Positions 1 through 56,231 of a DNA stretch of 64,000 bases are shown piece after piece (the stretch's first letter is position 1; each line of letters begins with the position of its first letter). The notes under the pieces were generated by a model. That model ran no database searches. It had not been told where the DNA came from and saw only the letters and a list, made by a program, of their open reading frames with translations. The position numbers and the translations under genes were made by a program. This DNA is from an uncultured Candidatus Saccharibacteria bacterium (GTDB lineage: Bacteria; Patescibacteriota; UBA1384; XYA2-FULL-43-10; 1-14-0-10-43-13), in assembly GCA_964628585.1 (NCBI GenBank), contig CAZVMH010000002.1, positions 97,751 to 161,750 of the forward strand, read 5' to 3'.

Positions 1-520
1 AGATTTTTTCACGCATTCTACCCTCGTGTCCAGCAAGGCCTTTCCATGCTTCAGCGAAACTACGGCCAACAGCAGAACCACCAATCATCCAACCGGCAAC
101 TGCTCCTGTACCGCCAGTTGCAAGTCCAAGTAGAGAAGCAATTGCGGCAGTTTTGCCTGTCTTCCAGCCAACATTGGCAACCCTTCTTAAAATTTCGTTT
201 CCAATGTTATGTCTTGCTGTTCCAGTTGCTGCATCATATGTAAAATCGTCCTCGCCACCAAGGAATAATCTCATTCTGTTCCACCACATATCCAGATTTC
301 TGTCACCATATAATTGTTGCAGTCGTTCTGTTCTTTGTGTGGCTTCCCATTGACCAGATCTGACTCTTTCAACCAAACTATTTATTTCTTCGTTTCTGGC
401 ATAATTGTCTTCACGCTCAATTTGACCGGCACCAGGACCTGGTACGGCAGGAGCGTCTTTATTTTCCGAATCTACAACGTTTTCAATATACGGACTATCG
501 TCTCTTTCGGGACTTGCCAT
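1..520 (-). CDS. hypothetical protein, 3' end truncated by window edge; C-terminal Gly/Ala-rich glycine-zipper-like hydrophobic segment
   Basis: ATG at 520..518 (rc) opens a reading frame with no stop through position 1. The manual translation reads MASPERDDSPYIENVVDSENKDAPAV...GWKTGKTAAIASLLGLATGGTGAVAGWMIGGSAVGRSFAEAWKG. Its start overlaps the stop of the upstream gene as TAATG. Confidence 0.45.
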   Translation of the reverse strand, partial: MASPERDDSPYIENVVDSENKDAPAVPGPGAGQIEREDNYARNEEINSLVERVRSGQWEATQRTERLQQLYGDRNLDMWWNRMRLFLGGEDDFTYDAATGTARHNIGNEILRRVANVGWKTGKTAAIASLLGLATGGTGAVAGWMIGGSAVGRSFAEAWKGLAGHEGRMREKI

Positions 521-864
521 TACTCCTCCTTATCTTGCATCAGCTGAACCATTTCCATTTTATAGATAATCGATTCCTGTGCGTAAATTTGGTCCACGTT
601 AATATTTAGTCCTTTCATATATTGATCAAACTCCTCTTTGCTGGCTCTCTTTACAATTTCTTTTAGCTTTTTAGCCTCTTCGTCACTAAGTTGGTCATCG
701 ATTTTTGCAATAACTCTTGTTTCAATTGTTTCAATCATGCTCTTGTAGATCTGTTGTTTCTGTTCTTCTGGCATTTCTTTTGCTCCCATCAATTCCAGAA
801 TATCCTTATCAATAATTTCGTCTGCTGTATACTTATTTTTTCCTGTTTGTGCATTTGAGTCCAT
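520..864 (-). CDS. hypothetical small acidic protein (114 aa)
   Basis: ORF track. Its stop TAA overlaps the ATG of the downstream minus-strand ORF as TAATG. I recognise no domain. Confidence 0.5.
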   Translation of the reverse strand: MDSNAQTGKNKYTADEIIDKDILELMGAKEMPEEQKQQIYKSMIETIETRVIAKIDDQLSDEEAKKLKEIVKRASKEEFDQYMKGLNINVDQIYAQESIIYKMEMVQLMQDKEE

Positions 865-989
865 AAAATTCCTTTTTTAATCTAATTGTTTATATTTTAC
901 CATAAAATGATATTTGAATATATCAAAATGGTTTACTTAAAGGAATTTCTGCAATATAATGTAATAAATACTCAAATGGAGGGTTTTTT

Positions 990-2603
990 ATGTTTGCGGT
1001 TAATTTACCAAACAAAAATTTAACTGAACGCCATCTTGGGCCAGAGGGGATCAGTAATTTAAGGTCTCAAATTGATAATGGTATACCTGTTCCTCAAGAG
1101 GACATCGATTTGATGTATGATGAAATTTCAAAGAAAATATTGTCAGATATTGACTCAAATTCAGATCTGAAATCGGAAACTGCAGAAAATATTCGAACAG
1201 CGGTGCCGTTTGAGGCGACTGATATGGGTCCGGATAAAGATGGTGAATCAGTAAAGCCAGAAGTTGTGGATAAGTCAGAATCAAAAGAGGATATCGAAAA
1301 AGAACGGGCCGAGTTGCGAGAACAAATTGAACATTACAACGAATATGTTCAGGAAGCACTCGATGCTGAAACAAAAATTAAAGACCTAGGAGATCAAGCG
1401 GGGATTGCAAAGGATGAAATAATTGCAGCTATTGTCAATGTGGAGGATCCTTTCTTTCATCCAGCAACACCAGGTTTAGTTAGAAGCCGACTTTTGACAG
1501 AACGATCAAGAATTGCAGGTGGAGACGACAAACTTAGTCAATTAAAAGAGCAATGTGACCAAAAATTGGGCAGTTTGGCTAGTCTAGGCGAAAAGATCGA
1601 AGCAGTTCGAGAACAAATTAACTCACTATTCAAAAGTATGTTATCAGCGTGCAGGGGCCAGAAAGAAGTGGCAGATCTGCGTGATTTTATTAATGAAATT
1701 AGATTTTATGATCAGGAACTTCAAATATTACAGAGAGATGAAGTTGAGGCGCGTTATCGCGATATGAAGGAGGGTCTAGGGGCAGATTGTGCTGCCAGAA
1801 TGGTGGAAATTTCAAAAACTAATAAATCAATAAAGGAAACCGTGGAGGAACCCGTGCCTAGCGTAATAGAACGAAAACCTAAAGAATCTACAGATCAGAC
1901 TCAAGCCATTGTTCAGGAAACTACAGGGACAGGTCAGGGCGTTGGATTTGAAACATTTGTTCCAAATCAACAACCAGTAGTAGAGACAGGAGCAGTCCAA
2001 GAAGACAAAAGTTTTGGACCAAATCAAGACATAAAGTTGCCGGGTGTGACAGAGGGTTCTATTGAAAACGAACAGAAGATTGCGAAGATTCAAGAAGAGC
2101 TCAAGGAGCCACCACTTCAAATGCCAACTTCTCCGCAAGATGCTGATACTGCCAAACCAGAAGGCACTTCAACGGGAGAGGGTGTAGAGCAAATTGCCGA
2201 TTTAGAGGGGCATACAATGGAAGTTGATTATCAACATCCTCAAGACGGAGCTGGTGTTACTGTAAATGCTCCGGAAAAAGTTGCGACCGAAGAGTCTACT
2301 CTGCCAGAGGCTCCAACGGTCGCGGAAAATCAAACTGTTGGTGTCAGTACCGATCAGCCCGCTCCAGAAGCACAAGTTCAGACTCCAATTCAACCCGAAG
2401 TACCTGTGGTGGCATCACCAGAACAATCAAAAGAAGTTGTATCTTCGGAAACTCCAGTAAAAGAGAAACAAAAAGGTGGTATAGGAGCTTTCTTAGGAAG
2501 ATTTTTAAAGAAAAATCATGATCCGACATCAAATGAAGCGGCAGAATTAGACAAAATGGTAACAGAGGAAAGAAAAGAGGCGGGGACCGCTCAACAAGAA
2601 TAA
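990..2603 (+). CDS. acidic, low-complexity coiled-coil protein (537 aa), E/Q/P/T-rich, with a short amphipathic basic C-terminal segment
   Basis: ORF track. A GGAGGG Shine-Dalgarno sits 7 nt upstream of the ATG. It is first in a co-directional plus-strand cluster with the two T4CP-like genes. Confidence 0.6.
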   Translation: MFAVNLPNKNLTERHLGPEGISNLRSQIDNGIPVPQEDIDLMYDEISKKILSDIDSNSDLKSETAENIRTAVPFEATDMGPDKDGESVKPEVVDKSESKEDIEKERAELREQIEHYNEYVQEALDAETKIKDLGDQAGIAKDEIIAAIVNVEDPFFHPATPGLVRSRLLTERSRIAGGDDKLSQLKEQCDQKLGSLASLGEKIEAVREQINSLFKSMLSACRGQKEVADLRDFINEIRFYDQELQILQRDEVEARYRDMKEGLGADCAARMVEISKTNKSIKETVEEPVPSVIERKPKESTDQTQAIVQETTGTGQGVGFETFVPNQQPVVETGAVQEDKSFGPNQDIKLPGVTEGSIENEQKIAKIQEELKEPPLQMPTSPQDADTAKPEGTSTGEGVEQIADLEGHTMEVDYQHPQDGAGVTVNAPEKVATEESTLPEAPTVAENQTVGVSTDQPAPEAQVQTPIQPEVPVVASPEQSKEVVSSETPVKEKQKGGIGAFLGRFLKKNHDPTSNEAAELDKMVTEERKEAGTAQQE

Positions 2604-2614
2604 AGGGTATCATA

Positions 2615-2700
2615 CCTCAGGGCAAGCCCTGCACTCTGTTCCGATTCATCGGAACATGTTGCCCCTACAAGTCGGGGCGGTATTTCACCTTTTTACGCAC
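2615..2700 (+). terminator. GC-rich multi-hairpin element followed by a T-run, downstream of the 990..2603 gene
   Basis: Three consecutive hairpins: cagggcaagccctg, ttccgattcatcggaa and cccctacaagtcgggg. They are followed by cacctttttacg, in an otherwise AT-rich context. Confidence 0.4.
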
Positions 2701-2730
2701 TGAATTCTTTACTAAGATATCTTGTAATAA

Positions 2731-5277
2731 ATGAATCAATACAGTTATTCAAATGGAGGATATAATAGCGGAGTCGAATCAGCCGGCCTTGCCTGGTGGA
2801 TTTTTGCGTTAATTAGTATTGCAATTGGAATTTTGGGCTATATCGCGTATTTAGCGATTCGTAAATCAATAATTCGCAAAAATCAAATTGCTCTGACTCG
2901 TGATTGGGTAATGTATAAAATCTCTGTACCAAAGGAGTTTCATGCCGAGGAAGATGATCAGCGTAAAAATTTTCAAGAAATGATGGCAGTGGTAGAACCA
3001 TTTTATGCTAACCTAAATTCAATTTTTACTGATTCAATTGAAAAAAAATGGACCGGACAGGATCACATCTCATTAGAAATTATTGCAAAAAACAATTTGA
3101 TATACTTTTATGTCGGTTGTCCTAGAAGGATCTCTGAAATTGTAGTAAAAAATCTGCATGCCCAGTATCCACACGCCGAAATTGTATTAGACGATCAATA
3201 TTCAATATTTCCAGATAAACCTCTCAAAATTGGAGCGGCTATTTTGGGGTTAAAAAAGCCATTTATGTTTCCAATAAAAACGTATCGACTTTTGGAAGAA
3301 GACCCGCTTAATGCAATAACTAATTCTCTTTCAAAATTTAAGGAAGATGAATCAGCTGGAATTCAATTTTTACTTCGGCCAGCTAACTCAATGTGGCGTA
3401 TTGCGGTAGAGAGAACTGCCTACAATCTTCAACATGGTAAAGTGAAAATTACTTCAAACTCTCCAGGGTTAAAGGCAATGGATACTATTTTTAATGTTCT
3501 GGGATCGGTGGCAAAAACTGCGACGACAGGAGACTCAGAATCGAAAAAAGACGGATTGATCGACGAGAATAAGTTAACTCCAATGCAGGAGAGTCAGGTT
3601 AAATTACTTGGCGAAAAAGCCTCAAAACTTGGTTTTGAGTGCCAAATTCGTGTTATGACAGTATCACCAACACAGGAAATGGCAGATCAAAATGTGAAAG
3701 AAATCTGCTCCGCTTTTAGCCAATTTAACGCTCCTGAGTCCAACGGATTGGTGAAAAAAAGAGCTAAAAAGAAAGCGGAAGAAATTGCGAACTACGTTTT
3801 TCGTATTTTTGGACCCGGTAAAAGATTAATTCTAAACACTGAAGAGCTTTGCACAATATACCATTTACCAAACAGATTTTTAGAGGCACCTTCCATTGCT
3901 TGGCTTTTATCTAGAAAATCGGCTCCGCCGTTTAATCTACCAACCGAGGGGACGATCATTGGAAATAGTGTATTTAGAGGAGAGACAAAACCTATACGCA
4001 TGGCCGAAAAGGATAGATTGAGACATATTTATATGATAGGTAAAACTGGCGTAGGTAAAACAGTTTTGTTTCAGAATATGATTGCCCAAGATATTGCTGA
4101 AGGCAGGGGAGTATGCTACTTAGATCCGAATGGAGATGCAGCTGAGTGGATTTTGCGTCATGTGCCGAAGGAACGGGCAGACGATGTAATATATTTTGAT
4201 CCTTCCGATATTGAGAGACCTTTTGGCCTAAACATGCTTGAGTGGAAAACACCAGAGCAAAGAGACTTTTTGGTTCAGGAAGCAATTCAGATGTTTTACA
4301 AACTATTTGATCCAAATCAAACCGGTATGGTTGGGCCACAGTTTGAACATTGGATGCGAAACGCTTCGCTTACTTTAATGATGCATCCAGATGGTGGCAC
4401 TATCATTGATATCCCAAGACTTTTCACAGATCCAGATTTTGAAAAAGATAGAACAAAATATGTGACAGATCCGGTTGTAAAATCGTTTTGGGAGAAACAG
4501 ATGGCAAAGACAGCTGACTTTCACAAGTCTGAAATGTTAAACTACTTCACCTCGAAATTTGGTCGTTTTATGACCAACGATATGATGAGAAACATTTTGG
4601 GTCAAACTAAATCTTCGTTTGATTTTCGCGAAGTAATGGATAATAAAAAAATACTAATTTGTAATCTTTCTAAAGGAAAGATAGGGGAGATTAATACTTT
4701 TCTTTTAGGTATGATCATTGTTTCAAAGTTGGCGATGGGAGCATTTTCGCGTCAGGACATTAACGAAGAAGAGAGAGTACCATTTTTCTTATATGTAGAC
4801 GAGTTTCAGAACTTTATTACCGATGTCTTTGCCACAATACTTTCGGAATCCAGAAAATATAAATTGGCTCTCAACATTACAAATCAATATATTGCTCAGC
4901 TAGACGACAAGGTTCGCGAAGCAGTTATTGGTAATGCTGGTACCTTACTTGCTTTTAGAATTGGAGCAGCTGATGCAGAGTTTTTAATAAAAGAGTTCGA
5001 TCCTGTTAAGGCAGATGATATGACTAGTATCGATAAATACAATTTCTACATTAAGATGTTGATAGATGGTTCTCCGACAAAACCGTTCAATGGTTTAGGT
5101 ATTTGGCCAGACAATCCTGAAGGTAATATTGAATTAGGAAACTCTATAAGGGAATTGTCTCGTTTAAAGTTTGGTCGTCCCCGTGAAATTGTGGGTGCTG
5201 AAATTTTAGAACGGTCCAAAGTCGATGTTATAGATTTGCCAGGAATTGGGGCGACCGACAACAATTCAAAATTATAG
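2731..5277 (+). CDS. VirD4/TraG/TraD-family type IV coupling protein-like P-loop ATPase with N-terminal transmembrane helix and long novel N-terminal domain
   Basis: N-terminal hydrophobic helix WWIFALISIAIGILGYIAYLAI. Walker A is HIYMIGKTGVGKT. A DPNGD motif follows, matching the T4CP DPKGE motif. Walker B is YVDEFQNF, compared with the TraG-family DEFxxLG. Confidence 0.65.
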   Translation: MNQYSYSNGGYNSGVESAGLAWWIFALISIAIGILGYIAYLAIRKSIIRKNQIALTRDWVMYKISVPKEFHAEEDDQRKNFQEMMAVVEPFYANLNSIFTDSIEKKWTGQDHISLEIIAKNNLIYFYVGCPRRISEIVVKNLHAQYPHAEIVLDDQYSIFPDKPLKIGAAILGLKKPFMFPIKTYRLLEEDPLNAITNSLSKFKEDESAGIQFLLRPANSMWRIAVERTAYNLQHGKVKITSNSPGLKAMDTIFNVLGSVAKTATTGDSESKKDGLIDENKLTPMQESQVKLLGEKASKLGFECQIRVMTVSPTQEMADQNVKEICSAFSQFNAPESNGLVKKRAKKKAEEIANYVFRIFGPGKRLILNTEELCTIYHLPNRFLEAPSIAWLLSRKSAPPFNLPTEGTIIGNSVFRGETKPIRMAEKDRLRHIYMIGKTGVGKTVLFQNMIAQDIAEGRGVCYLDPNGDAAEWILRHVPKERADDVIYFDPSDIERPFGLNMLEWKTPEQRDFLVQEAIQMFYKLFDPNQTGMVGPQFEHWMRNASLTLMMHPDGGTIIDIPRLFTDPDFEKDRTKYVTDPVVKSFWEKQMAKTADFHKSEMLNYFTSKFGRFMTNDMMRNILGQTKSSFDFREVMDNKKILICNLSKGKIGEINTFLLGMIIVSKLAMGAFSRQDINEEERVPFFLYVDEFQNFITDVFATILSESRKYKLALNITNQYIAQLDDKVREAVIGNAGTLLAFRIGAADAEFLIKEFDPVKADDMTSIDKYNFYIKMLIDGSPTKPFNGLGIWPDNPEGNIELGNSIRELSRLKFGRPREIVGAEILERSKVDVIDLPGIGATDNNSKL

Positions 5278-5281
5278 TATT

Positions 5282-5305
5282 CAGATAACAGAATACAGAT
5301 AACAG
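5282..5305 (+). repeat. tandem direct repeat CAGATAACAG-aata-CAGATAACAG
   Basis: Seen directly, immediately after the stop of the first T4CP-like gene and upstream of a promoter-like TTGACG-N17-TAAGAT at 5355..5383. Confidence 0.6.
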
Positions 5306-5411
5306 CCACTATCTATAGTAGCGCATATTTGTAATGGTTAATCTGTTTTTTTGTTGACGAATTAAAGATTATATGGTAAGATATTTTCAAGTTCATAATA
5401 AAAAAACAAAA

Positions 5412-5912
5412 ATGGCAGAAGAAAAAGAATTACAAATTATCAGGCAGCTTTTAGATAACGTTGAAAACCAGATTCGTCAGGTTAGAAGTATTTTATTTGC
5501 AAAAGAGATAAACAAAAAAGCTAAAGCGCTTGATCTTGAATCTCAGGGGGATATTATTGAAGGTATTTATAGTGGCGAGGAAATGGTAGACGCTGAAGGT
5601 AAGAGTCATCCTGTTCCTCCAAACTATGCTTCAAAGTCCAAACTAGTGCCTGGTGATGTTCTGAAATTGACGATTCTTCCAGACGGTTCATTTATTTATA
5701 AACAGATAGGGCCAGTTAAAAGAAAAAAAATAGTGGGAGTATTGGAAGATATCGGAAAAGGAAAATTTGTAGTAAATGCTGATAACAAAAAATATCGTGT
5801 TCTTTATGCTTCAGTAACCTATTTTAAAGCAGTAGATGGTGACAATTTAACAATTATTGTTCCAGAAAAAGGCGAGTCAGAGTGGGCTGCAATTGAAAAT
5901 ATTATTAAATAA
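5412..5912 (+). CDS. hypothetical protein (about 167 aa)
   Basis: ORF track 5373..5912. The track ATG overlaps the putative -10 hexamer, so the downstream ATG at 5412 (MAEEKELQ...) is preferred. I recognise no domain. Confidence 0.45.
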   Translation: MAEEKELQIIRQLLDNVENQIRQVRSILFAKEINKKAKALDLESQGDIIEGIYSGEEMVDAEGKSHPVPPNYASKSKLVPGDVLKLTILPDGSFIYKQIGPVKRKKIVGVLEDIGKGKFVVNADNKKYRVLYASVTYFKAVDGDNLTIIVPEKGESEWAAIENIIK

Positions 5913-5938
5913 TACAAATATAATTAAATAAGAAAACT

Positions 5939-6967
5939 ATGGCAATCAAAAACTTTAGTCCTTACAAAATTGTAAATGAGGCAAAACAGAATTTAAAACC
6001 AAATGAGCAAAGAGTCACTTCTGGTCGTTTTGGTATCGGTGAAGAAAGAAAGACGTTGTCGTCTATCGGGAAGGAACTAAAGCTTTCCAGAGAACGTGTC
6101 CGTCAGATAGAGAAAGATGCCCTTAAAAAACTTTCTGTTTTAATTATTGAAAAAGAAAATATTAATATAGAAAATATTCTGACTGCTTTTGCTGAAGTCG
6201 GAGGCGTTGCTAAGCATGATCAGATTGCCGAAAAGTTTTTGGAAAAGATACAACATAAAGATATTAATGAATTTAATTCTTTAAACTTAATTTTTACCCT
6301 AATCCCACAACTTAAAAAAATTGAGAAGACAAAAGAATTGGAAGCAAGTTGGATTTTTTCTACGATTGACAAAGAAGATATTACCAAAGTTGTTGAAGAT
6401 TGGGCCAAACATCTTTCAAAAACAAAAACACCTGAAAGTGTAGATATTTTGCGAAATGTTAATCCCGAAAATGGAAAATATGAGATCACTTTTCTCTCAG
6501 AACTACCATTGGTTAGTAAAAAAATTATTAAAACTGAAGATGGCAAAATTGGTTTATCTTCTTGGCCAGAAATTAATCCGCGTAATGTTCGTGATAAAAT
6601 CTATTTTATTCTAAAAAAAGAAGGTAAACCTACTCACTTTGATGACATTGCAAAGAAAATTAACGCTGAGAATTTAGACGCAAAAAAAGTTGTAAGGGCA
6701 ACTGTTCATAATGAACTAATTGCTGACAAAAGATTCGTCTTAGTTGGCCGTGGCATATATGCTTTAACTGAATGGGGTTATAAGCCCGGTACAGTTAAAG
6801 ACATGATAGTAGAAACTCTAAAAAAACATCCAAATGGTATTTCTGCTAACCAAATTGTTGACGAGGTTTTAAAACAGAGAACAGTTAAAAAAAATACAAT
6901 TTTAATTAATTTGCAGACTAAATCTGATTTTATAAAAGTAGGGGATAAGTACTCTCTTAAATCGTAA
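5939..6967 (+). CDS. DNA-binding protein with N-terminal sigma-70 region-4-like HTH and C-terminal HARE-HTH-like domain
   Basis: The N-terminus RFGIGEERKTLSSIGKELKLSRERVRQIEKDALKKL matches the sigma-70 region 4.2 pattern. The C-terminus KRFVLVGRGIYALTEWGY matches the HARE-HTH signature (RFvrvgrGxWgLxeW). Confidence 0.55.
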   Translation: MAIKNFSPYKIVNEAKQNLKPNEQRVTSGRFGIGEERKTLSSIGKELKLSRERVRQIEKDALKKLSVLIIEKENINIENILTAFAEVGGVAKHDQIAEKFLEKIQHKDINEFNSLNLIFTLIPQLKKIEKTKELEASWIFSTIDKEDITKVVEDWAKHLSKTKTPESVDILRNVNPENGKYEITFLSELPLVSKKIIKTEDGKIGLSSWPEINPRNVRDKIYFILKKEGKPTHFDDIAKKINAENLDAKKVVRATVHNELIADKRFVLVGRGIYALTEWGYKPGTVKDMIVETLKKHPNGISANQIVDEVLKQRTVKKNTILINLQTKSDFIKVGDKYSLKS

Positions 6968-7061
6968 CCAGCTTTATTATGTCAGTAGTATAGATGTTTC
7001 TTTTGATGTATAATAAAAACAACGGTTAAATCAATCGGGGTTTTTTACATAAGAAAGTCAA

Positions 7062-10000
7062 ATGGAATACTTTGTTTTCGTTATAATAGCGGTTTTAATA
7101 GCGGTACCTTGGTACCTTATTTCTGCGATGAAAAAAACTAGAAACGAACAAAGGAAAATTGATTGGCACTCAAATTTAAAGTTAACTACTTTGCGCATTG
7201 ATGTGCCAAAAAATAATGATAAAGCGCCTCTTTCGGCTGAGCAGATGTTCGCTGCTATTCATGGTATATATTCAGCATCATCTTTAGAGCAATACCATTT
7301 AAGTTTTGAATTAGTAGCAAAAGATAAGTTTATTCAATTTTATGTCACAGTTCCTACTCACCTTAAAGATTTTGTTGAGGGACAAATTTATGCTCAGTAT
7401 CCAACAGTAGAGATAAGTGAAGTTCCAGACTTTACGACAGGCAAGAAAGCACACGAATTGAACTTTTCTCTTTGTGAACTAAAAATGACAAAACCGGATG
7501 TCTACCCAATTCGTTTTTTTGACAGTTTCGACGTAGATCCGCTTTCAGGCATTACTTCGGTGATGGGGAAGCTTGGTCAAAACGAAGAAGTTTGGTTTCA
7601 ACTAGTTACTAAGCCAGTTGGAGACGAGTGGCAAGACAAAGGCAATAGTATTGTAAGTAGTGTTCGTGCAGGTAAAAAACCTGGTGGTCAGGCGATATTT
7701 GATTCGTTTATTTCGGGATTTAAAAACTTTTTGAAAATATTTTTGGCTCATGCTATAAATCCTTCAGCTGAAATAGCAGAGGAAAAACCATCTGAAATAA
7801 AACTACCTTCAACCGTGGAAGAAGCACTCAAAGGGATAGAACAAAAAATTACAAAATTGGGGTTTGAGTCAAAAATTCGTATACTCTGTATTGCAAACGA
7901 TCCAATGACAGCCTCTGTAAAATGTCAGAGCATTGCGGCAGCTTTTAAACAATTTAACACTACAAATTTAAATGGTTTTGTTTCTGGCGAAATTAAAAAA
8001 AATGATTTCGATGCTTGGCAAATGTTTGTTAACAGGGAATTCGTAGATAAAGGTAATATTTTTAACATTTCAGAGTTAGCCTCTATCTATCACTTACCCA
8101 ATCAAACAGTTGAAACGCCAAATATAGTCTGGTCTGGTTTTAAGAAAGGCGAACCACCTGCAAACTTACCCCTTGATTCAAACACTCCAGCAGAAACTTT
8201 AACAGCAATCGGGTCTACAAATTTTAGAAATGTCTATGCTGATTTTGGTATTAAACTCGATGATCGAAGACGTCACATTTATATTATTGGTAAGTCAGGT
8301 ACAGGTAAATCTACTTTAATTGAAAATATGGCCATAGATGATGTTTATGAGGGCAGGGGAGTAATTATAGTTGATCCTCATGGAGAATTGGCGGAAAAAA
8401 TTTTATCATGCGTTCCAACAGAAAGAATTAAGGATGTAATAATTTTTGATCCATCTGATCGTGGTTTTCCAGTAGCATTCAACCTTTTAGAAATGGTAGA
8501 TGATGATTTTAAGGGCATGGTTGCTTCTGGTTTTGTCGGGATTTTTAAGAAAATCTTTGGTGAATCTTGGGGCCCTCGTCTAGAGCATATTTTACGAAAT
8601 ACCGTTTTGGCTTTACTTGATAATCCAAACTCAACAATGCTGGATATCCCAAGAATGTTGACAGACAATCACTTTCGAGACAAGGTTGTAACAAAAGTTA
8701 AAGATCCAGTGATTCGTGACTTCTGGGTTAATGAATTTGCTCAATATGATGCTAAATTTAGGACAGAAGCGGTTTCTCCAATTTTAAACAAGGTTGGTCA
8801 GTTTCTGGCAACTGCAACTATCAGAAATATTGTAGGGCAACCTCATTCCAAAATAAATATTCGTGAAATTATGGATCAGAAGAAGATACTGGTTGTTAAT
8901 CTATCTCGCGGAAAAATTGGTGAAGATAATTCTGCCTTACTTGGTGCCATGATGATTACAAAAATACAGCTTGCGGCAATGAGTCGAGCTGATGTTACAG
9001 TCGATAAAAGAGAAGATTGTTTTCTGTATGTAGATGAGTTTCAAAACTTTGCTACTGATTCCTTTGCCGTAATTTTGTCTGAGGCGAGAAAGTATAACTT
9101 GTGTTTGACAATGGCAAATCAATATATCGAACAGATGCCAGAAAGTGTTAGAAGTGCTGTTTTTGGTAATGCTGGTACAATAATTGCTTTTCGTGTTGGT
9201 GGAACCGACGCAAGCTTTTTAGTTCGAGAATTTGAGCCAGTTTTTGACGCAAATGATATGGTTAATCTAGATAAGTTTAATATTTATATTAAACTTTTGA
9301 TAGACGGTATTTCTGGACCAGCTTTTTCAGCAAGAACCTTCCCACCTGTGCAAAAAATTGCCGGAAATGCAGATGAAATTTTAACATATTCTAGAGATCA
9401 TTATTCTGCTCCACGTGCGCTAGTAGAAGAGAGAATTGCTAATCGAGATGAAGAAGAAAAGAAAGAAATGTTGGCAGAAGCAGAAGCATTTAAATCTGGT
9501 GGGCTAGAAGCTTTGTTGGTAAAAAAGGGGACAACACCAAACACAATACCACCTGCGGTTGAGACAATAGAACCAAAAGAAATTGTTCCAAAAAAAGAAG
9601 AAAAAGAGGAAAAAATTATTAAGGAAAAAACGGAAAAGAAACCATCAAAACCTCGAGTATTTAAATATCAAAATATTATTGGAGATAAAATCTATAAAGA
9701 ACAAACTGCTAAAGGGGGAGTGAAGTGGTTTATTGGTGAGAGTATAGATTGGGAAAAAATGAAAGAAACTGAGGTAGAAATTGGTCCTGAAGCTGAGAAA
9801 ACAATTGAACTAGCTAAAAAAGTTGCTCACGAATCGGAGCATAGATCTATTCATCAATCAGGTAGTCCATCAAAAATAGAGAAGAAAGAAGAAATCTCAA
9901 ATAGTGTAATCGAAGATAAAACACAAGAGGAAGAAACACAAGCACCCAATGTGAAAGAAGATAATATATCCGAAAAAAAACCAGTCGAAAAAATCGATGA

Positions 10001-10175
10001 TAAAGCAGGGGAGTCTCTTCCTAAAAAAAATGATGATATCCCAAAAGTAGATACAGATAACGGTACTAATGTTTCAAATCAAAACACAACGCAAACAAAT
10101 AATTCAGATAATAATCCTGGCCCTCAAGTCTTAAAGTCAGGTCACTTACAAGACGGAGAAGAGGAAAAACTCTGA
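7062..10175 (+). CDS. VirD4/TraG/TraD-family type IV coupling protein-like ATPase, paralog of 2731..5277, with long low-complexity K/E-rich C-terminal tail
   Basis: N-terminal TM helix. Walker A is HIYIIGKSGTGKST. Motifs DPHGE and YVDEFQNF are present. Other blocks are shared with 2731..5277: IYHLPN, KILxxNLSRGKIGE and GNAGTxxAFRxG. Confidence 0.65.
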   Translation: MEYFVFVIIAVLIAVPWYLISAMKKTRNEQRKIDWHSNLKLTTLRIDVPKNNDKAPLSAEQMFAAIHGIYSASSLEQYHLSFELVAKDKFIQFYVTVPTHLKDFVEGQIYAQYPTVEISEVPDFTTGKKAHELNFSLCELKMTKPDVYPIRFFDSFDVDPLSGITSVMGKLGQNEEVWFQLVTKPVGDEWQDKGNSIVSSVRAGKKPGGQAIFDSFISGFKNFLKIFLAHAINPSAEIAEEKPSEIKLPSTVEEALKGIEQKITKLGFESKIRILCIANDPMTASVKCQSIAAAFKQFNTTNLNGFVSGEIKKNDFDAWQMFVNREFVDKGNIFNISELASIYHLPNQTVETPNIVWSGFKKGEPPANLPLDSNTPAETLTAIGSTNFRNVYADFGIKLDDRRRHIYIIGKSGTGKSTLIENMAIDDVYEGRGVIIVDPHGELAEKILSCVPTERIKDVIIFDPSDRGFPVAFNLLEMVDDDFKGMVASGFVGIFKKIFGESWGPRLEHILRNTVLALLDNPNSTMLDIPRMLTDNHFRDKVVTKVKDPVIRDFWVNEFAQYDAKFRTEAVSPILNKVGQFLATATIRNIVGQPHSKINIREIMDQKKILVVNLSRGKIGEDNSALLGAMMITKIQLAAMSRADVTVDKREDCFLYVDEFQNFATDSFAVILSEARKYNLCLTMANQYIEQMPESVRSAVFGNAGTIIAFRVGGTDASFLVREFEPVFDANDMVNLDKFNIYIKLLIDGISGPAFSARTFPPVQKIAGNADEILTYSRDHYSAPRALVEERIANRDEEEKKEMLAEAEAFKSGGLEALLVKKGTTPNTIPPAVETIEPKEIVPKKEEKEEKIIKEKTEKKPSKPRVFKYQNIIGDKIYKEQTAKGGVKWFIGESIDWEKMKETEVEIGPEAEKTIELAKKVAHESEHRSIHQSGSPSKIEKKEEISNSVIEDKTQEEETQAPNVKEDNISEKKPVEKIDDKAGESLPKKNDDIPKVDTDNGTNVSNQNTTQTNNSDNNPGPQVLKSGHLQDGEEEKL

Positions 10176-10182
10176 AAATTTT

Positions 10183-10275
10183 CACCCACCCCCGAGACGA
10201 AGTCTTCCCTTTGGGAAAGGGGCCGCTTTGTGGCGGGGGATTATAAAATCGGGGGAGTGGCTTATTTTGCATTTT
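10183..10275 (+). terminator. GC-rich structured element and probable terminator after the second T4CP-like gene
   Basis: An outer stem, ccacccccg with cgggggagtgg, encloses the inner hairpins cccttt-ggg-aaaggg and ccgc-tttgtg-gcgg. The element is followed by cttattttgcatttt. Confidence 0.4.
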
Positions 10276-10463
10276 ATATGGAATTTTATTTATTTCTAAT
10301 TTCTATCAAAACCAAATCAGGTCAATTCCAAAATATACCTAGTACAAATAAATCATATTTTAACTATGTTCTCTGGCGATAAAAATAAAAAAGTTTACCT
10401 ACTTGGTATTGACGGTATATTTCTAACTATACTAAAGGTAAATTGGCGAGATAAGATGATGCA

Positions 10464-10510
10464 AACCCCTCTTTCCAGAGAAGTGGCCGGAGAAGTGGTC
10501 GAGAGGGGTT
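10464..10510 (+). repeat. perfect 9-bp inverted repeat (aacccctct/agaggggtt) enclosing a loop with the direct repeat gagaagtgg x2
   Basis: Seen directly. It lies in a 550-bp non-coding stretch, with a possible promoter TTTACC-N18-TATATT near 10394..10423. Confidence 0.5.
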
Positions 10511-10726
10511 GTAAAATCTAGTATTTTAATATATTTAAACAAGCAATAATAGCACTTTCTTAAACCATGAATAATGTCGCATAACATACATTATGCGACA
10601 TATTATCAATTAAGCTCAAATATGTATTATTCTTTCAAAACTCATACAAAGTATGACAAAAAAAAGCCTGTATTGAGCTCAAAAAGCCCTACAAGCCATT
10701 TTCTGACACTTTTATTTGTAATGTGG

Positions 10727-11098
10727 TTAGTTCTCTATTTCGTTGCTAATTTGATTGTTTTTACTGACTAGTTTGTCAACGGTCGCAGTTTTGATAACTC
10801 CAATATTTGAGAAAATGCGGATTGTAAATGCTATTAGTACTGCCAAATAAATGTCAAGGTTTAGTTCATCTCCTAGGAACGTCAACAGGACTGCTACAGT
10901 CATATTGAAGAGCAAACCAGAAAGAAATACAGTAGTATCAAATCTTTTTTCAATTTGAGCTCTAACAGCACCAAATAGTGAATCCAATATTCCAACAATT
11001 GCTACAGCGGTATAGCGAGCGTATTCTGGAGGAATATCAAACTTTAAAAAAGTGCCAACAACTAGACCAAATGTAAGCCCGATAATTACTAGATACAT
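10727..11098 (-). CDS. small basic membrane protein resembling the DUF1290/Sbp family
   Basis: About 120 aa with three hydrophobic segments. IPPEYARYTAVAIVGILDSLFGAVRAQ...VFLSGLLFN resembles B. subtilis Sbp/YlxX, from memory. Confidence 0.5.
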   Translation of the reverse strand: MYLVIIGLTFGLVVGTFLKFDIPPEYARYTAVAIVGILDSLFGAVRAQIEKRFDTTVFLSGLLFNMTVAVLLTFLGDELNLDIYLAVLIAFTIRIFSNIGVIKTATVDKLVSKNNQISNEIEN

Positions 11099-26638: not shown

Positions 26639-28558
26639 TTACTCCGCGTCAGCTTCTCCTTGATAAAGCTGCTGTTCGTTGTGTTTTCTGGCGACGACCT
26701 CAAAACCGAATCTCTTGCAAGCTTCGGTATAGAAGTCAACGTCATCTTCTGTGACGTCTGCTGCCAGCGAGGCGTGCTCGTAGGCCTGAGTCAGGGCGAG
26801 GATTATTGCTTCCACCAGACATGCTGGGAAAAGCGGAACGCCCTGATCCTGCCCAAAGTGGAAATCAATCGGACAGGAGATGTTACCAGGCAGTTTCATA
26901 AGCCCGCAACGAATCAGCGTGACATCTGGCCGAAGTTCCAGAATCTTATCCGCAACGTCTGGCGGATACGCCACATCGAGAAGATAACAACCCTCTTTCA
27001 AGAGATGGCAGTTTTCTGCTGTGATCAGAGGCTCAGGTGAGCTAGTACAACAGAAAACGATGTCGGCAAGTGAAAGTGCACTCAAGTCGTCGCTCGAGAG
27101 GACGGTGCCGATATTGATCTGTCGGTCCGATCTCGATGAGTTGCCTCTTAGGAAAGCGATCGACTCCTTGGTCTCTCTGGCCACGGTGTCATAGAGACGA
27201 TGTCCAATCAGACCTCGAGCACCAAGAGCTGCCATGACCAGATCTGAAAGTTGTCGGTCTCCTAGCACTTTCTTTAGGGCAATCAGAGTAGCGCTAACGG
27301 TATTAGCAGCACCGTTGTCTATCTGAATGGTCAGACCTCTCTTCTTGCACCAGAGATCGAGGTCCTTGCCTCCTCTGGCTTCAGATGAGAGCAAACCACC
27401 TAGACCCAACACAGTCGCACCGAGTCGTTGAGCCAAAACAGCAGCAGCTTTGAGAAGCGCATAGAGTAATCTGTTGTGGGACGATTTCTTGAGCTTCTCT
27501 TGAGCTTGAGAAATGCGACGAAGAACGTGCTCCATTCCTTGATTGCCTTTCGTTATGGCAGTAATGACCTTGTCGCATCCTCGAACCAAAATCGCTGCAG
27601 TCTCGAGAAGAGCGTAAAGCGACTTGTTGTATGACACCTCTTTGATCATCTCTGGTATCTGGATGATGCCCAGAAGAATAACCCGCACCTTCCTGCCATC
27701 TTTGGTCACGATGCCAGTGATCTCACCGCACTCCATGACAGGACAAAGCCGAAGAAGCATTCGCACGAAGCGTTCGCTAATCTTCTTGCCCTCTAGCGCT
27801 TTGATCACAAGCTTGCCACCAGGCAGCTGCTTCAAGTCGTTCAAGTCTCTATTGTGCATTGCGAAGGCGGCTACTACTTCATCGCCAACATTGTGCACTC
27901 CACGCTTCTCTGAAAACTTCGGCTCGGTACCATTTCGGAGACGAACAACGTTTCTTGCATGCATTCTGATGACTGCGATAGGCACAGCCAGAAAGACTCC
28001 TAGTATTGCAGGACTGGCTTGGAAGATATAGGCAAAAACTGGCGTGCTCAACGCCGCCAACATTGAGGCCATAGACATATAGCCGGTAGAAAAGAGCACT
28101 ACCAGCCAAATGCCAAATGCACTTAGCGCCACTTTGTAGTTAAGAGCGAGTGCTCCACCACAGAGTGTTGCTACCATCTTACCTCCGCTGAACATACCTT
28201 CGGCAAGAAAGAAGTAAAATGAAAAGCCATGACCAATTCCGGCCGCGATCATGCAGAAAGCAGCGGGGATCTCCCCGATATACATTTTGCAGATCATAGT
28301 CGGAACGAATCCTTTGGCAAGATCTAGTAGCAGAACGGGAATTCCCACTTTCCATCCCAGAACTGCTTTCACGTTGGTGAAGCCAATGTTACCGCTTCCC
28401 CAGTCTCTGATGTCAAAGTGCTTCCCCTTGAATACCTTTGCCAGCCAATACCCGAAGGGCATCGAACCGCACAGGTATGAGAGGACAATAAATCCGATCC
28501 ATATAAGCATACGACCTCCTTTTTCCCCGTCTGTTTGCTTCGGCGTGAAGTATAACAA
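26639..28558 (-). CDS. plsY: fusion protein: N-terminal PlsY (acyl-phosphate:glycerol-3-phosphate acyltransferase) plus C-terminal acyl-ACP-reductase-like Rossmann domain
   Basis: The N-terminal PlsY has GSGNIGFTNV and is multi-TM. The C-terminal GLIGHRLYD, ADIVFCCTSSPEPLITAENCHLLKEGCYLLDVAYPP and CPIDFHFGQDQG...ACLVEAIIL resemble the cyanobacterial acyl-ACP reductase family, from memory. The gene is markedly GC-rich relative to its flanks. Confidence 0.65.
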   Translation of the reverse strand: MLYFTPKQTDGEKGGRMLIWIGFIVLSYLCGSMPFGYWLAKVFKGKHFDIRDWGSGNIGFTNVKAVLGWKVGIPVLLLDLAKGFVPTMICKMYIGEIPAAFCMIAAGIGHGFSFYFFLAEGMFSGGKMVATLCGGALALNYKVALSAFGIWLVVLFSTGYMSMASMLAALSTPVFAYIFQASPAILGVFLAVPIAVIRMHARNVVRLRNGTEPKFSEKRGVHNVGDEVVAAFAMHNRDLNDLKQLPGGKLVIKALEGKKISERFVRMLLRLCPVMECGEITGIVTKDGRKVRVILLGIIQIPEMIKEVSYNKSLYALLETAAILVRGCDKVITAITKGNQGMEHVLRRISQAQEKLKKSSHNRLLYALLKAAAVLAQRLGATVLGLGGLLSSEARGGKDLDLWCKKRGLTIQIDNGAANTVSATLIALKKVLGDRQLSDLVMAALGARGLIGHRLYDTVARETKESIAFLRGNSSRSDRQINIGTVLSSDDLSALSLADIVFCCTSSPEPLITAENCHLLKEGCYLLDVAYPPDVADKILELRPDVTLIRCGLMKLPGNISCPIDFHFGQDQGVPLFPACLVEAIILALTQAYEHASLAADVTEDDVDFYTEACKRFGFEVVARKHNEQQLYQGEADAE

Positions 28559-46019: not shown

Positions 46020-48383
46020 ATGAAAAGAATTTTATATTTACTGTTTTTTTTCTTTTGTTTTTACATAATCCAACTAGCTGTTTTAACACATTCTGACTTG
46101 AATAGCCACAGAAGAGCAAAAGCAAACGAAGCAATAGAAAATGACAATAGCGTAATTGTAAAAATTCCTCCAACAATAAATTCAAAAGAATTCTCAGAGT
46201 ATCTTTCTGGCAATGTAGCCAAAGATAGATACATTGAAATTTCAAACATAATGGAGATGCCTCACTATGAGGCCATTAGCAAATTGCCATTGATTGAGGG
46301 AGCTCTACAATTTAAATACTTTGATTCCACCCTTTTAGAAATACTTCCTGCAAAACAAACAAAAACTAGCAGTGTTTTCGGTGCTGATCCAGCTAACGAA
46401 ATTACTTTTATTATTCCTACGGAAAATGACACGAACTGTCAGCATTCGTCTATTGCATATATGGACTGCTATCCTTGGACGCAAGCGCAAGCCGATATTT
46501 TAGAAAATTCAATTATACAAGCTAAGCCGATTATATTGGAAAAGTTTGGTCCTCCTAGCGCCAACGGATCATATATAATTAAACACGTACCAAGATCTCA
46601 ATATGCCGGTCAAACTGTTACCGGGATTATCTATATTACTGACCCTGCACTTCCAGATTATGAAAGTACAAATTTAGCTCTTCCTGTTTTTTGGCATGAA
46701 TGGGGTCATGCTCATGTCTTGCCATACGCTTATTTTAACCCAGAATGGAACGAATCTTTATCAGCACAAACTTTTTCTCATTTTATATCTTGGGGCATCA
46801 ATTATTCTGGAAATCCAGGTAGCCAACCAATTAATGTTGCGAATTATGAACAATATAATAAATCGTTTTTTGATGCAAAGGCTATAAGTGACTCAGATAA
46901 CAATGCAATGTACCGGTCGACTCCAACTCTTTGGATTAAACTTGAAAAGGAACATCCGGGCACAATTAAAGAACTTTATTCTCGTTCATATGACTCAAGA
47001 TCGAATGGCTTGCCTTTTCAAAACAATGAAGCAATCACGGCTTTAAATGACATAATAGGTCAAAACGAAAACAGTAGAGTCGAAGGGCAACCATTTCTTG
47101 AATGGTTTGCAAAACAATACTCAATTGCTCAAGCCACAGGCAAATATAAATTTGGTGGAAGATTAATTCAAGAGGGAGAGGGTTCTATAGCAACGGCCTC
47201 TTTGTTTGTTAATTATGTTCGATCAAATAATATGCGGCTCGATGTAAGATCTACCAGCGATTCTGGTTATTCTGGAAGCTTTACCTATGAATTATTTCGT
47301 GGCGATGGTACAATGTTCGCTTCTGATCTGTGTCGACCAGGAGATTGCGGAACTGATAGCACTGGAAGATCAAAGATTGATTTAACGCAGATAATAAAAC
47401 AAAATTGGACAACAACACCAATTAGCCAACTCCCAGAAAGCAAAATATGTGCCAGAATACAACTTTATGGCGTTTCCGAAAATTTTCTTACTCCAAATGT
47501 GTCTTGTTATTATTTTCGTGGCGAAAGAACAGACATTACAAATATGGGAATTATTGGAACTGTAGGGCCTGAGAATGAAAATATCTCTGGGCTCGTTACT
47601 ATTTCCCCATTAGGCACACAGTCTGGCATAGAACAATCTGTGACTGTTTCATTAGGGAAGTTTGCAACATCTGGACAAAATAATAGTTATTACAACGAGG
47701 GTGGTCCTTATAGGATTGATTTTTATGACCAAAATGGTTCAATTGTTTCTTCAAAAACAATAACAAAAGATGATAAAGATTATTATTTTACACATCTTGA
47801 CTTAGATGTAGAACCTCCACTTCTTAATAATTTAAACTCATCTGTTTTAGTGAACGGATCTTCAACTTTTAATTTATCAAGCAAAAAACCGGCTGGAATA
47901 ACGTATTACGTTAAAAAAAATAACGGCTACGTTCTCTCAACTAAGACATACGAATTGAATTCATTGTATACTCCTGTTATCAATTCTTTGGTTAGCGGAG
48001 ATAGCTATAACCTGTACATAGAAAATGGGAAAGGAACAGGAGCAATTTTTTCAGAAGACTGGCAATTATTTGGGCAAACAATTCAGGCATATATTACTAA
48101 ATGGGTTGCAAATCAAAAAAATCATGAAATTGAATATAAGATGAGGATAGTAAATTTATCTAGTAGCCCCATCACAGATATCAATGTTCAAGATCCGATT
48201 ATTATTCCTTCTCAATATGTTCCATCTTCGGGTCAATTAAATGGTCTGAGCGTAACCGATTTAGCAGACGACGGCGACGGCTATGCTGTTGTTGACAATA
48301 AACCCACATGGCAATTATTAACATTGCCTGATAATTCTGCACCAGAAAATTTTGCCATACTAGGGCTTAAAGCAGCATATTAG
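46020..48383 (+). CDS. large secreted protein with HExxH (HEWGH) zinc-metallopeptidase-like motif
   Basis: AGGAGG SD. N-terminal hydrophobic anchor. PVFWHEWGHAHV. AT-rich. Confidence 0.55.
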   Translation: MKRILYLLFFFFCFYIIQLAVLTHSDLNSHRRAKANEAIENDNSVIVKIPPTINSKEFSEYLSGNVAKDRYIEISNIMEMPHYEAISKLPLIEGALQFKYFDSTLLEILPAKQTKTSSVFGADPANEITFIIPTENDTNCQHSSIAYMDCYPWTQAQADILENSIIQAKPIILEKFGPPSANGSYIIKHVPRSQYAGQTVTGIIYITDPALPDYESTNLALPVFWHEWGHAHVLPYAYFNPEWNESLSAQTFSHFISWGINYSGNPGSQPINVANYEQYNKSFFDAKAISDSDNNAMYRSTPTLWIKLEKEHPGTIKELYSRSYDSRSNGLPFQNNEAITALNDIIGQNENSRVEGQPFLEWFAKQYSIAQATGKYKFGGRLIQEGEGSIATASLFVNYVRSNNMRLDVRSTSDSGYSGSFTYELFRGDGTMFASDLCRPGDCGTDSTGRSKIDLTQIIKQNWTTTPISQLPESKICARIQLYGVSENFLTPNVSCYYFRGERTDITNMGIIGTVGPENENISGLVTISPLGTQSGIEQSVTVSLGKFATSGQNNSYYNEGGPYRIDFYDQNGSIVSSKTITKDDKDYYFTHLDLDVEPPLLNNLNSSVLVNGSSTFNLSSKKPAGITYYVKKNNGYVLSTKTYELNSLYTPVINSLVSGDSYNLYIENGKGTGAIFSEDWQLFGQTIQAYITKWVANQKNHEIEYKMRIVNLSSSPITDINVQDPIIIPSQYVPSSGQLNGLSVTDLADDGDGYAVVDNKPTWQLLTLPDNSAPENFAILGLKAAY

Positions 48384-49147: not shown

Positions 49148-49231
49148 TTGTCTCCTTGTTTAATAAATTTATCCAATCCAATTATATCAAAAATATTATT
49201 TCTTATTCAAATTCATGATACAATTATATGT

Positions 49232-49939
49232 ATGAAGGAATTTTTTAAGAAACATTTGTTTCAAATATTAGTTATAATTTTAGTTATTTTAACTGGTTTT
49301 TCAAATTATTTATTATATGATTATTATAAAAAAATAACCAATCTTCAAAACGAAAAAGAAGTTCTAAATCAAGAATATATAAAAACAAAACAAGATTTAG
49401 AAGCAGCAAATGAGAGCATTAAACAAAAAGATGCTCAGCTTGATGAAAAGAGCAAGGAAATAGAAAACTTAACACAATCTAAAGCAAATACAACTACTAC
49501 TGATACTATTGCACAAGCTCCTGCTACAACGACCAACCAACATACTTCATCCATATATGACAGAATTAGCGGTTCAGATGAATTTAAGAATAAAATAGTC
49601 AGTGCTCTGGATTTATTAAAAGCGCAAGACAATGAGCACTATAATATTGTATCTAGTCAAGTAGGAACAATTTACGAGTATGACAATTATGGTGGATATC
49701 AGGAGAAAAGAAATATCCACATCGGAGCAGATGCTAACCCTGCAATTACGGCCCCTATTATTGTTCACGAGGCTCAGCATGTTTACAATGTTTATGTAAA
49801 TAAGATCTATTCATACAATACTAAAGAACAAGAGTTGCCATGTTATGAGGCTGAACTGGTAGCAGCACAGAGAGTGGGTTCGCCAGCTTTTTTCATTACT
49901 TCAATTGAAAGTAGTATAAGTTATTGGCAATCGCAATAA
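49232..49939 (+). CDS. membrane-anchored coiled-coil protein with C-terminal HExxH (HEAQH) motif
   Basis: Start moved to the internal ATG at 49232 (MKEFFKKHLF...), because the track start abuts the divergent TM2 gene. IVHEAQHVYN. Confidence 0.5.
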   Translation: MKEFFKKHLFQILVIILVILTGFSNYLLYDYYKKITNLQNEKEVLNQEYIKTKQDLEAANESIKQKDAQLDEKSKEIENLTQSKANTTTTDTIAQAPATTTNQHTSSIYDRISGSDEFKNKIVSALDLLKAQDNEHYNIVSSQVGTIYEYDNYGGYQEKRNIHIGADANPAITAPIIVHEAQHVYNVYVNKIYSYNTKEQELPCYEAELVAAQRVGSPAFFITSIESSISYWQSQ

Positions 49940-49974: not shown

Positions 49975-50007
49975 CGAAAAGAGGCGACCCGTCAGGCGGG
50001 TCGCCTC
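49975..50007 (-). terminator. strong GC-rich intrinsic terminator for the GC-rich operon
   Basis: gaggcgacccg-tcag-cgggtcgcctc with a minus-strand U-run (plus-strand cgaaaa). Confidence 0.65.
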
Positions 50008-50044
50008 TTTGCTCTGACTTTTGGCCTCTCGGCCTTAAGTCTTG

Positions 50045-51250: not shown

Positions 51251-51429
51251 CACGTTTACGCCTCCTGTGTTTGCCCACTTTGCAAAAGCTGGGCAATATG
51301 CCCATATTATACAACAAATTAATATAAAATGCAATAGCAACAGCCGAAAACAAGAATCTCTTATTTACAAATACAAAGGGGGCTCCGCGCGTTTCCACAC
51401 GGAGCCCCTGTTACTTCTCCTTCCTCTCC

Positions 51430-51945: not shown

Positions 51946-51960
51946 TTCCCTCTCTCCTTC

Positions 51961-53238: not shown

Positions 53239-53422
53239 TCGAATCCTCCTGTTCCCAAGGCTGAATTTTGGTGCAACCATCGGCGCAAGTATACAATTTT
53301 TACTCAATTTATTCAATAGAGTAAGCAATATTAAAAAAAGACTCCTACAGTTACAGCAGATGAGAGTCTAGTTTGTTGATATTATATTACAATTTGTCGA
53401 TTACGCGTTCAAAAACAGGAAA

Positions 53423-56165: not shown

Positions 56166-56202
56166 AACTATTCCTTATTTTCTAATGATGCGGTTAGTAC
56201 CC

Positions 56203-56231
56203 TTTACAATCTAGTAAAAACCCACTATAAT
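56203..56231 (+). promoter_or_regulatory. consensus-like sigma-70 promoter TTTACA-N17-TATAAT on the plus strand, antisense to the flanking genes
   Basis: TTTACA at 56203..56208 and TATAAT at 56226..56231. Confidence 0.55.

Follow-up and report, generated by a model that had tools for sequence, protein, structure and literature searches.

In a 64,000-nucleotide stretch of DNA from an uncultured Candidatus Saccharibacteria bacterium (GenBank assembly GCA_964628585.1, contig CAZVMH010000002.1, positions 97,751 to 161,750; the whole stretch is called the window below), a cluster of five co-directional open reading frames (ORFs) on the plus strand, at 990-10175, encodes two large ATPases, named here A (848 aa) and B (1037 aa). 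As regards identity and architecture, A and B are very probably paralogues of ancient origin, both from a single family within the VirB4/VirD4 branch of the FtsK-HerA ATPases; a DNA-handling mechanism of the coupling type is a more tentative proposal, to which we would give somewhat less than even odds, and a compromise figure for identity and mechanism taken together is about 0.55. They are chromosomal, duplicated, relaxase-less type IV coupling-type ATPases, less novel than was proposed in a preliminary description of this DNA, which had correctly reported the co-directional cluster with its two paralogous ATPases.

A considerable part of bacterial diversity belongs to the Patescibacteria, which are dependent on host cells, and a type IV secretion system (T4SS) is essential in the one genetically tractable member. 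The T4SS gene cluster has no recognisable coupling protein, yet about two orphan homologues of type IV coupling proteins (T4CPs), whose role is unknown, occur in nearly every genome. In passages of the survey by Quinonero-Coronel et al. (2025, PMC12102498), 5,713 VirD4-type T4CP homologues are counted in 2,918 of 3,035 Patescibacteria genomes, 148 of them near virB4. A and B are almost certainly among these homologues, since about two occur per genome, detection is by VirD4-type hidden Markov models and virB4 is rarely near. Those passages describe neither the DUF8128 or VirB4-like N-domain, nor a split into A and B types, nor conserved partner genes; what is new here is the assignment of a VirB4-like fold to DUF8128, the A/B split and two conserved partner genes. 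The orphan homologues thereby gain an anatomy, namely a membrane anchor, a predicted VirB4-type N-domain and a coupling-type NTPase, along with a division into two ancient clades with specific partners.

Anatomy of the two ATPases

A and B align with 36% identity over about 840 residues (E 3e-158), which places their paralogy far beyond chance. The identity is 45.1% in the ATPase half and 33.8% in the N-domain, so that the region between membrane helix and NTPase is indeed conserved between the copies, as had been noticed earlier. By sequence and hydropathy, each protein has one N-terminal hydrophobic helix followed by a cluster of K and R residues, and by the positive-inside rule the remainder of A would be cytoplasmic. 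The N-terminal helix, the Walker A motif and the DEFQNF Walker B motif of the preliminary description are all present in both proteins (Table 1), and the catalytic residues are conserved across the family. Its other motifs needed some correction: DP(N/H)GE does not hold for A, which reads DPNGD and not DPNGE, and of the N-region motifs KLGFE..IR and IYHLPN are common to A and B, with A reading CTIYHLPN and not CSIYHLPN.

Table 1. Coordinates in the window of the five genes of the cluster and of the parts of ATPases A and B
Feature	Position	Strand	Basis or remark
Acidic 537-aa protein	990-2603	+	ORF, composition; membership of the system by position alone
ATPase A, 848 aa	2731-5277	+	Transmembrane (TM) anchor, DUF8128 (VirB4 N-terminal-domain-like), T4CP-like NTPase
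A, TM helix, about aa 20-43	2788-2859	+	RKSIIRK after the helix
A, DUF8128 domain, aa 50-410	2878-3960	+	Modelled; VirB4 N-terminal-domain fold
A, NTPase half, aa 404-848	3940-5274	+	RecA-like core, all-helical insert
A, Walker A GKTGVGKT, aa 437-444	4039-4062	+	
A, Walker B VDEFQNF, aa 689-695	4795-4815	+	
179-aa partner of A-type ATPases	5373-5912	+	Locus survey, alignment
342-aa DNA-binding-type protein, partner of B-type ATPases	5939-6967	+	Pfam, locus survey
ATPase B, 1037 aa	7062-10175	+	TM helix, DUF8128, NTPase, acidic low-complexity tail
B, TM helix, aa 1-23	7062-7130	+	
B, DUF8128 domain, about aa 30-385	7149-8216	+	
B, NTPase	8217-9461	+	
B, Walker A GKSGTGKS, aa 410-417	8289-8312	+	
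B, Walker B VDEFQNF, aa 657-663	9030-9050	+	
B, acidic low-complexity tail	9462-10172	+	21% D+E

Regarding the N-domain, precomputed annotations of the Pfam family DUF8128 (PF26449) exist for about 240 homologues of A and B and for a protein that matches A at 100% identity, and membership is assigned through these annotations. The domain comprises about 360 residues, and its model has the predicted fold of a VirB4 N-terminal domain. The region taken earlier for a novel domain is therefore a catalogued one. A comparison by hhalign of the DUF8128 alignment with the N-terminal 492 aa of a Bacillus AAA_10 VirB4, which is a weak test with a single sequence on one side, returned a probability of 0.1%, and the link of the N-domain to VirB4 is thus one of fold. 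No mention of DUF8128 or PF26449 was found in the literature searched, and a search for VirB4-like N-domains in coupling proteins gave nothing relevant. A review of T4CPs (PMC7434980) divides them into a transmembrane domain (TMD), a nucleotide-binding domain (NBD), an all-alpha domain (AAD) and a C-terminal domain (CTD), and describes no VirB4-like N-domain.

For the NTPase, profile searches point to the coupling proteins. The Pfam family TrwB_AAD_bind matches A with 21.2 bits and B with 32.3 bits, small margins over the cutoff of 20.5, and DUF87 matches B with 25.6 bits; TraG-D_C reaches 20.8 and 21.6 bits against a cutoff of 22, and PF02534 gives weak or faint precomputed matches in homologues only. 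The top NCBIfam matches are TraD and the CD1115 VirD4-like family, and a family profile searched against the sequences in the PDB places DotL (1.1e-6) and TrwB (1.1e-5) on top, with no VirB4 or FtsK. In contrast, AAA_10 and CagE_TrbE_VirB give no Pfam match to A or B at E<=0.1, FtsK_SpoIIIE is also absent, and the NCBIfam VirB4/TrbE matches lie far under their cutoffs. On the side of the profiles the T4CP assignment of the preliminary description, in preference to VirB4 or FtsK, thus stands. Both proteins also have an all-alpha domain inserted in the NBD, which is a T4CP feature.

Structural comparison of the NTPase gave 27.1 for the C-domain of DptH, 25.8 for TrwB, 25.4 for HerA, 22.9 for DotL and 18.9 for TrwK, with FtsK and TcpA lowest at 17.6. 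VirB4 and coupling proteins are therefore separated by sequence and not by structure, and the two kinds of result together suggest a protein that is VirB4-shaped overall with a motor whose sequence is coupling-protein-like. The FtsK_SpoIIIE motor profile, the multi-helix N-terminal membrane domain and the gamma domain that mark FtsK/SpoIIIE are lacking in A and B, and so is the combination of a HAS-barrel N-domain with a HerA ATPase, usually accompanied by a NurA partner, that marks HerA. A replacement of FtsK by A and B was also considered, an idea weakened by the annotated ftsK in TM7x and by the lower structural similarity.

Distribution, partner genes and mobile relatives

A search with the N-domain alone gives 2229 clusters at 50% identity, and a genome scan gave at least 566 species-level genome matches, in the Berkel-, Uhr-, Falkow-, Magasanik-, Parcu-, Microgenomates-, Peregrini-, Gracili- and Dojkabacteria. 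In a tree of a subsample that included four members from mobile genetic elements (MGEs), the A clade has a bootstrap of 95/100 and the B clade of 73/100, values to be taken as rough owing to the simple neighbour-joining/Kimura method and the subsampling. Each clade spans several lineages, so the duplication appears to be old.

The neighbourhoods of about 90 Patescibacteria loci were surveyed with flanks of +/-10 kb. A homologue of the 179-aa protein lies at most two genes downstream of A-type genes, on the same strand, in 25 of 67 loci, and a gene for a sigma4/HARE-HTH protein like the 342-aa one stands upstream of 19 out of 29 B-type gene pieces, compared with 0 of 64 A-type genes. The latter pairing was also met in a Saccharibacteria-like contig, a Microgenomates contig and Parcubacteria. 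Unbiased clustering of the neighbour ORFs yielded otherwise only recurrent housekeeping families (DnaX, TGT, CysS, L10, SecDF, CorA), besides small acidic proteins just upstream of A, which occupy position -1 of A-type genes in 18+7 loci. The conserved partners for which the preliminary description suggested a survey of the neighbourhoods of homologues are the 179-aa protein for A and the sigma4/HARE-HTH protein for B, the rest being housekeeping apart from these acidic proteins. No T4SS or relaxase homologue was found within the surveyed flanks, where single-sequence phmmer queries with VirB4, PrgI, TcpD/E and Replic_Relax gave only weak ATPase-to-ATPase matches with family members.

The A and B modules are adjacent mainly in a Berkelbacteria-like clade, which includes this window, and in a few related loci. 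In the Berkelbacteria-like relatives the whole cluster is syntenic together with the SecDF flank, and the gene order including the SecDF and RluD-like flanks is kept at 55-68% identity; in this lineage the two modules are fused into one co-directional cluster. In two Parcubacteria loci (L088:8843-12853 and L091) the B gene is split, with the helix-turn-helix (HTH) gene followed by a 424-aa TM+DUF8128 gene and then by a 521-aa T4CP-like NTPase gene. The view of such proteins of about 424 aa as a 'TrsD' beside a real VirB4 was rejected, as they represent the N-terminal half of B-type genes that are split. A further locus (L089) has an N-domain gene with no NTPase gene following it.

It was also observed that 24 loci contain DnaX (DNA polymerase III gamma/tau), which stands at most four genes downstream, on the same strand, of 16 A-type ATPases. 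TopA stands upstream of the HTH-B module in two loci of two lineages (L003 and L005), with DprA present too in the first. These are recurrent DNA-metabolism neighbours, which may reflect a functional link or synteny alone.

The 342-aa protein, suspected from the beginning to be a DNA-binding regulator between the two ATPases, matches Sigma70_r4 (E 1.3e-12, aa 18-65, nt 5990-6133) and HARE-HTH (E 3e-11, aa 223-279, nt 6605-6775) in Pfam, and its N-terminus matches structures of region 4 of the primary sigma factor RpoD (E 6e-17). A second winged helix is possibly present, making one or two HARE-HTH modules. A literature search for HARE-HTH/sigma fusions gave nothing relevant. The proposal of a degenerate MobC/Replic_Relax relaxase was tried and dropped, BLASTP against SPO1 gp27.3 and hhalign against a Bacillus plasmid protein being negative. 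The 179-aa protein has an N-terminal helix and a beta-rich domain, and in alignment the motif NYASKSKLVxGD..KLTI..G.F.YKQI is strongly conserved; profile searches of the PDB sequences and NCBIfam gave no significant match, and Pfam gave a sub-threshold RimP-SH3. The acidic 537-aa protein before the pair (pI 4.5, 20% D+E), which is coiled-coil or disordered in agreement with the earlier account, has only Pfam and NCBIfam matches below every cutoff. Its place is taken by a 460-aa protein in the locus L001, and an unrelated-looking acidic protein stands there in relatives; from this position, it may belong to the system.

The family is further found on phages and plasmids. The phage profile phrog_5156 matches A (E 6.5e-88, aa 81-829) and B (E 6e-96, aa 76-800), covering positions 48-812 of its 824 in the latter case. 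By tblastn, members occur in 77 phage records, nearly all of Bacillus phages (phage G gp156, SPO1 gp27.4, CP-51, 0305phi8-36 ORF201), among which phage G gp156 shows 23% identity over 90% of the query, and in 407 plasmid records from Streptomyces, Bacillus, Staphylococcus, Clostridium, haloarchaea and Sulfolobus. Since Bacillus phages as well as plasmids of Bacillus, actinobacteria and archaea have full-length relatives, the family is not specific to the Candidate Phyla Radiation (CPR).

On a B. subtilis plasmid a replication-relaxation gene comes after the family member, and next come TcpD/TcpE of a Tcp-type T4SS operon, which carries its own 854-aa AAA_10 VirB4 (285 bits). The order on an Embleya plasmid is PrgI (VirB3), an ATP-binding protein (untyped, as annotated), the family member, a replication-relaxation gene and NlpC/P60. 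On these two inspected bacterial plasmids, family members thus hold the position of the coupling protein. In SPO1, gp27.4 adjoins the Replic_Relax gene gp27.3.

Two arrangements among the mobile relatives were recorded in addition. In phage G (L007:3327-7469), gp155 (549 aa; P-loop_TraG/AAA_10/DUF87, of VirB4 type) lies directly upstream of the DUF8128-type gp156, and a gene annotated as homologous to SPO1 gp27.3 (replication initiation by nicking) is found some 5 kb from there. On haloarchaeal plasmids (L096:6770-10964) the family is split into a 382-aa N-domain protein and a 1018-aa NTPase protein.

Mechanism and alternative explanations

In the mechanism that we propose, A and B would be anchored in the membrane and oligomeric, probably as hexamers, and would work as ATP-driven receptors or translocases of substrates, with conjugative coupling proteins as their ancestors. 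The motor of B would most likely handle DNA or a nucleoprotein complex that its HTH partner presents to it; this partner would replace a relaxosome accessory protein, and the acidic tail of B may be a binding site for adaptors, as in other coupling proteins, acidic C-terminal domains being typical of T4CPs (PMC7434980). The VirB4-like N-domain could serve for membrane-proximal docking or for oligomerisation. Docking might take place on the separately encoded and distant Gram-positive-type T4SS of the phylum, or the ATPases might act independently.

Several points weigh against this explanation, which is a computational one. The T4CP scores in Pfam are marginal, with TraG-D_C just under its cutoff; the modelled NTPase appears structurally slightly nearer to VirB4 than to TrwB, and the whole protein appears colinear with VirB4, to whose N-domain the similarity is by predicted fold only, a link at the sequence level not having been found by hhalign. 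Monophyly of A and B against the four MGE members has a bootstrap of only 48/100 in the tree. The window, and likewise the related Patescibacteria loci, have no relaxase, oriT-type partner or channel component. Among the partners, the 179-aa protein offers no functional clue, and the sigma4/HARE-HTH protein may be no more than a transcription factor. From the literature, the T4SS cluster is known without a recognisable coupling protein and relaxase (Wang et al. 2023, PMC10633639), and passages of PMC12102498 report that the T4CP homologue of S. epibionticum is non-essential where the T4SS is essential, and suggest exaptation.

The last of these points also speaks for a serious, if on balance unlikely, competitor, a T4SS-independent housekeeping DNA translocase. 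According to it, A and B transport chromosomal or incoming DNA at the membrane, for segregation, repair, uptake or export, and the HTH protein is their DNA-recognition subunit; they would be domesticated coupling proteins with an FtsK/SpoIIIE-like or competence-like job. In its favour, the genes are chromosomal and phylum-wide, with about two copies per genome almost never near virB4 (PMC12102498); their neighbours are housekeeping genes, several of them for DNA metabolism (DnaX, TopA, DprA); and none of the roughly 90 loci has T4SS genes in its flanks. The occurrence of T4CP homologues in 96% of genomes compared with 80% for VirB4, given in the same passages, was not used as evidence of T4SS independence, since two copies at about 80% completeness of metagenome-assembled genomes would give identical numbers. 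A bolder combination, in which the ATPases with the 179-aa and sigma4/HARE-HTH proteins form a phylum-wide T4SS-independent mover of DNA or nucleoprotein at the epibiont membrane, and in which the family is a surviving intermediate between VirB4 and VirD4, we regard as rather doubtful.

Another reading takes A and B for divergent but genuine VirB4 assembly ATPases, wrongly labelled as coupling proteins, which would power the assembly of a T4SS or pilus; it agrees with their overall shape and is improbable in view of the sequence. T4CP profiles match them whereas the VirB4 profiles do not, and the comparison with the Bacillus VirB4 N-domain was negative. The single-sequence phmmer query with the Bacillus AAA_10 VirB4 picked out none of the family members at the loci beyond the weak matches given above. 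The presence of a family member beside a separate genuine VirB4 on the B. subtilis plasmid argues in the same direction, as does the separate, untyped ATP-binding protein of the Embleya plasmid. Moreover, passages of PMC12102498 describe a separate VirB4 clade of Patescibacteria with VirB3/6/8 neighbours, of which none is seen at the A and B loci.

The version of the preliminary description, a minimal module particular to the CPR in which coupling ATPases carry a domain new to science, is very improbable. Its T4CP-like sequence signals hold good, and the silence on DUF8128/PF26449 in the literature searched and on a VirB4-like N-domain in the T4CP review would suit it. Against it, the domain is already a Pfam family with a recognisable fold, full-length relatives occur in Bacillus phages and on plasmids of Bacillota, Actinomycetota and Archaea, and the adjacency of A and B is limited to the Berkelbacteria-like clade and a few related loci. 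Finally, a remnant of an integrated conjugative or phage-derived element, to which the frequency of the family on MGEs and phages might point, is scarcely credible when the cluster resembles its flanks in GC content, keeps its gene order in relatives and is accompanied by no integrase, relaxase or T4SS gene that could be found, and when the A clade and the B clade are both spread over many Patescibacteria lineages.

The anatomy and the partner genes lead to testable questions: which partner binds which motor, whether VirB3/VirB8-type proteins are docking sites for the N-domain, and whether DNA is the substrate. A coupling-protein lineage with a VirB4-like N-domain would be common to Gram-positive and archaeal plasmids, Bacillus phages and Patescibacteria chromosomes, and such a domain bears on the origin of VirD4 from a VirB4-like ancestor. 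If A and B are ordinary coupling proteins of a distant T4SS, the finding shrinks to a refinement of annotation.

Other features of the window and comparison with known systems

The Pfam scan of the window comprised 33 ORFs, which are most, not all, of those of 120 aa or more. Among them no canonical VirB4 (AAA_10, CagE_TrbE_VirB), VirB6, relaxase or pilus family was found, which bears out the absence of VirB4, VirB6 and relaxase reported earlier; outside the cluster the window has housekeeping genes (SecDF, FtsZ/FtsA, enolase, ClpB, RelA, NusA, HisRS) and a type I restriction-modification (R-M) locus. The GC content of the cluster (0.34-0.40) is like that of its flanks. Rfam and tRNA scans gave no RNA genes in the window, and promoter and terminator counts over 400-10800 are at the level of shuffled sequence and thus uninformative on operon structure.

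On the minus strand at 520-864, 126 nt upstream of the cluster, lies a 114-aa ORF with weak similarity to DUF5663. In relatives (L001, L008, L010, L013-L015), DUF5663-family genes are co-directional with the cluster and stand directly or several kb upstream of it, and the flipped ORF suggests a local inversion or rearrangement at the left end of the window.

Farther away, a GC-rich island at 50000-53400, with a GC of 0.48-0.54 where the window has about 0.35, carries on the minus strand the genes of three proteins whose N-termini resemble signal peptides or those of lipoproteins. They have no Pfam family besides one sub-cutoff DPPIV_N beta-propeller match, and the island may be horizontally acquired or an assembly chimera. 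The R-M locus lies within 55410-63822 (HsdR 56450-58867, HsdS 58864-60000, HsdM 62308-63822), with a gene for a 772-aa AAA_13 ATPase (59993-62311) between hsdS and hsdM in a PrrC/RloC-like arrangement and a PD-(D/E)XK (Cas4-like) gene at 55410-56165. A 639-aa ORF on the minus strand at 26639-28558, locally richer in GC (0.47), joins an N-terminal PlsY (G3P_acyltransf) to a weak C-terminal Shikimate_DH-like Rossmann match, a fusion that is unusual if real. Two further proteins are a 787-aa one with a signal-peptide-like N-terminus and no Pfam match (46020-48383, plus strand, in a part with few plus-strand genes) and a 263-aa membrane-anchored one with an HExxH-like 'HEAQH' motif (49148-49939).

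Compared with the T4CPs VirD4, TrwB, TraG and DotL, in which a two-helix TMD usually stands directly before the NBD, A and B have one TM helix and, between this anchor and the NTPase, the domain of about 360 residues that resembles the N-terminal domain of VirB4; unlike T4CPs, the Patescibacteria proteins are also chromosomal and duplicated, with no relaxase or T4SS nearby. With VirB4 itself (TrwK of R388; VirB4 of Thermoanaerobacter pseudethanolicus) they appear to share the N-terminal domain's fold, and they differ from it in the lack of a CagE_TrbE_VirB/AAA_10 profile match, in the lack of VirB3/6/8 neighbours and in the TM helix fused at the N-terminus. With the phage ATPases 0305phi8-36 orf201, SPO1 gp27.4 and phage G gp156 the homology is full-length and includes the N-domain. 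Pathria et al. (2012, PMC3357382) described the first two as VirD4-like coupling ATPases, encoded in a phage 'DNA translocation operon' that can be dispensed with in the laboratory. The 0305phi8-36 operon was described with a VirB6-like protein, and orf201 was reported to be without a TM helix, unlike A and B. In SPO1 the partners are a Replic_Relax/MobC-like nickase and an actin-like protein, whereas in Patescibacteria they are the 179-aa and the sigma4/HARE-HTH proteins.

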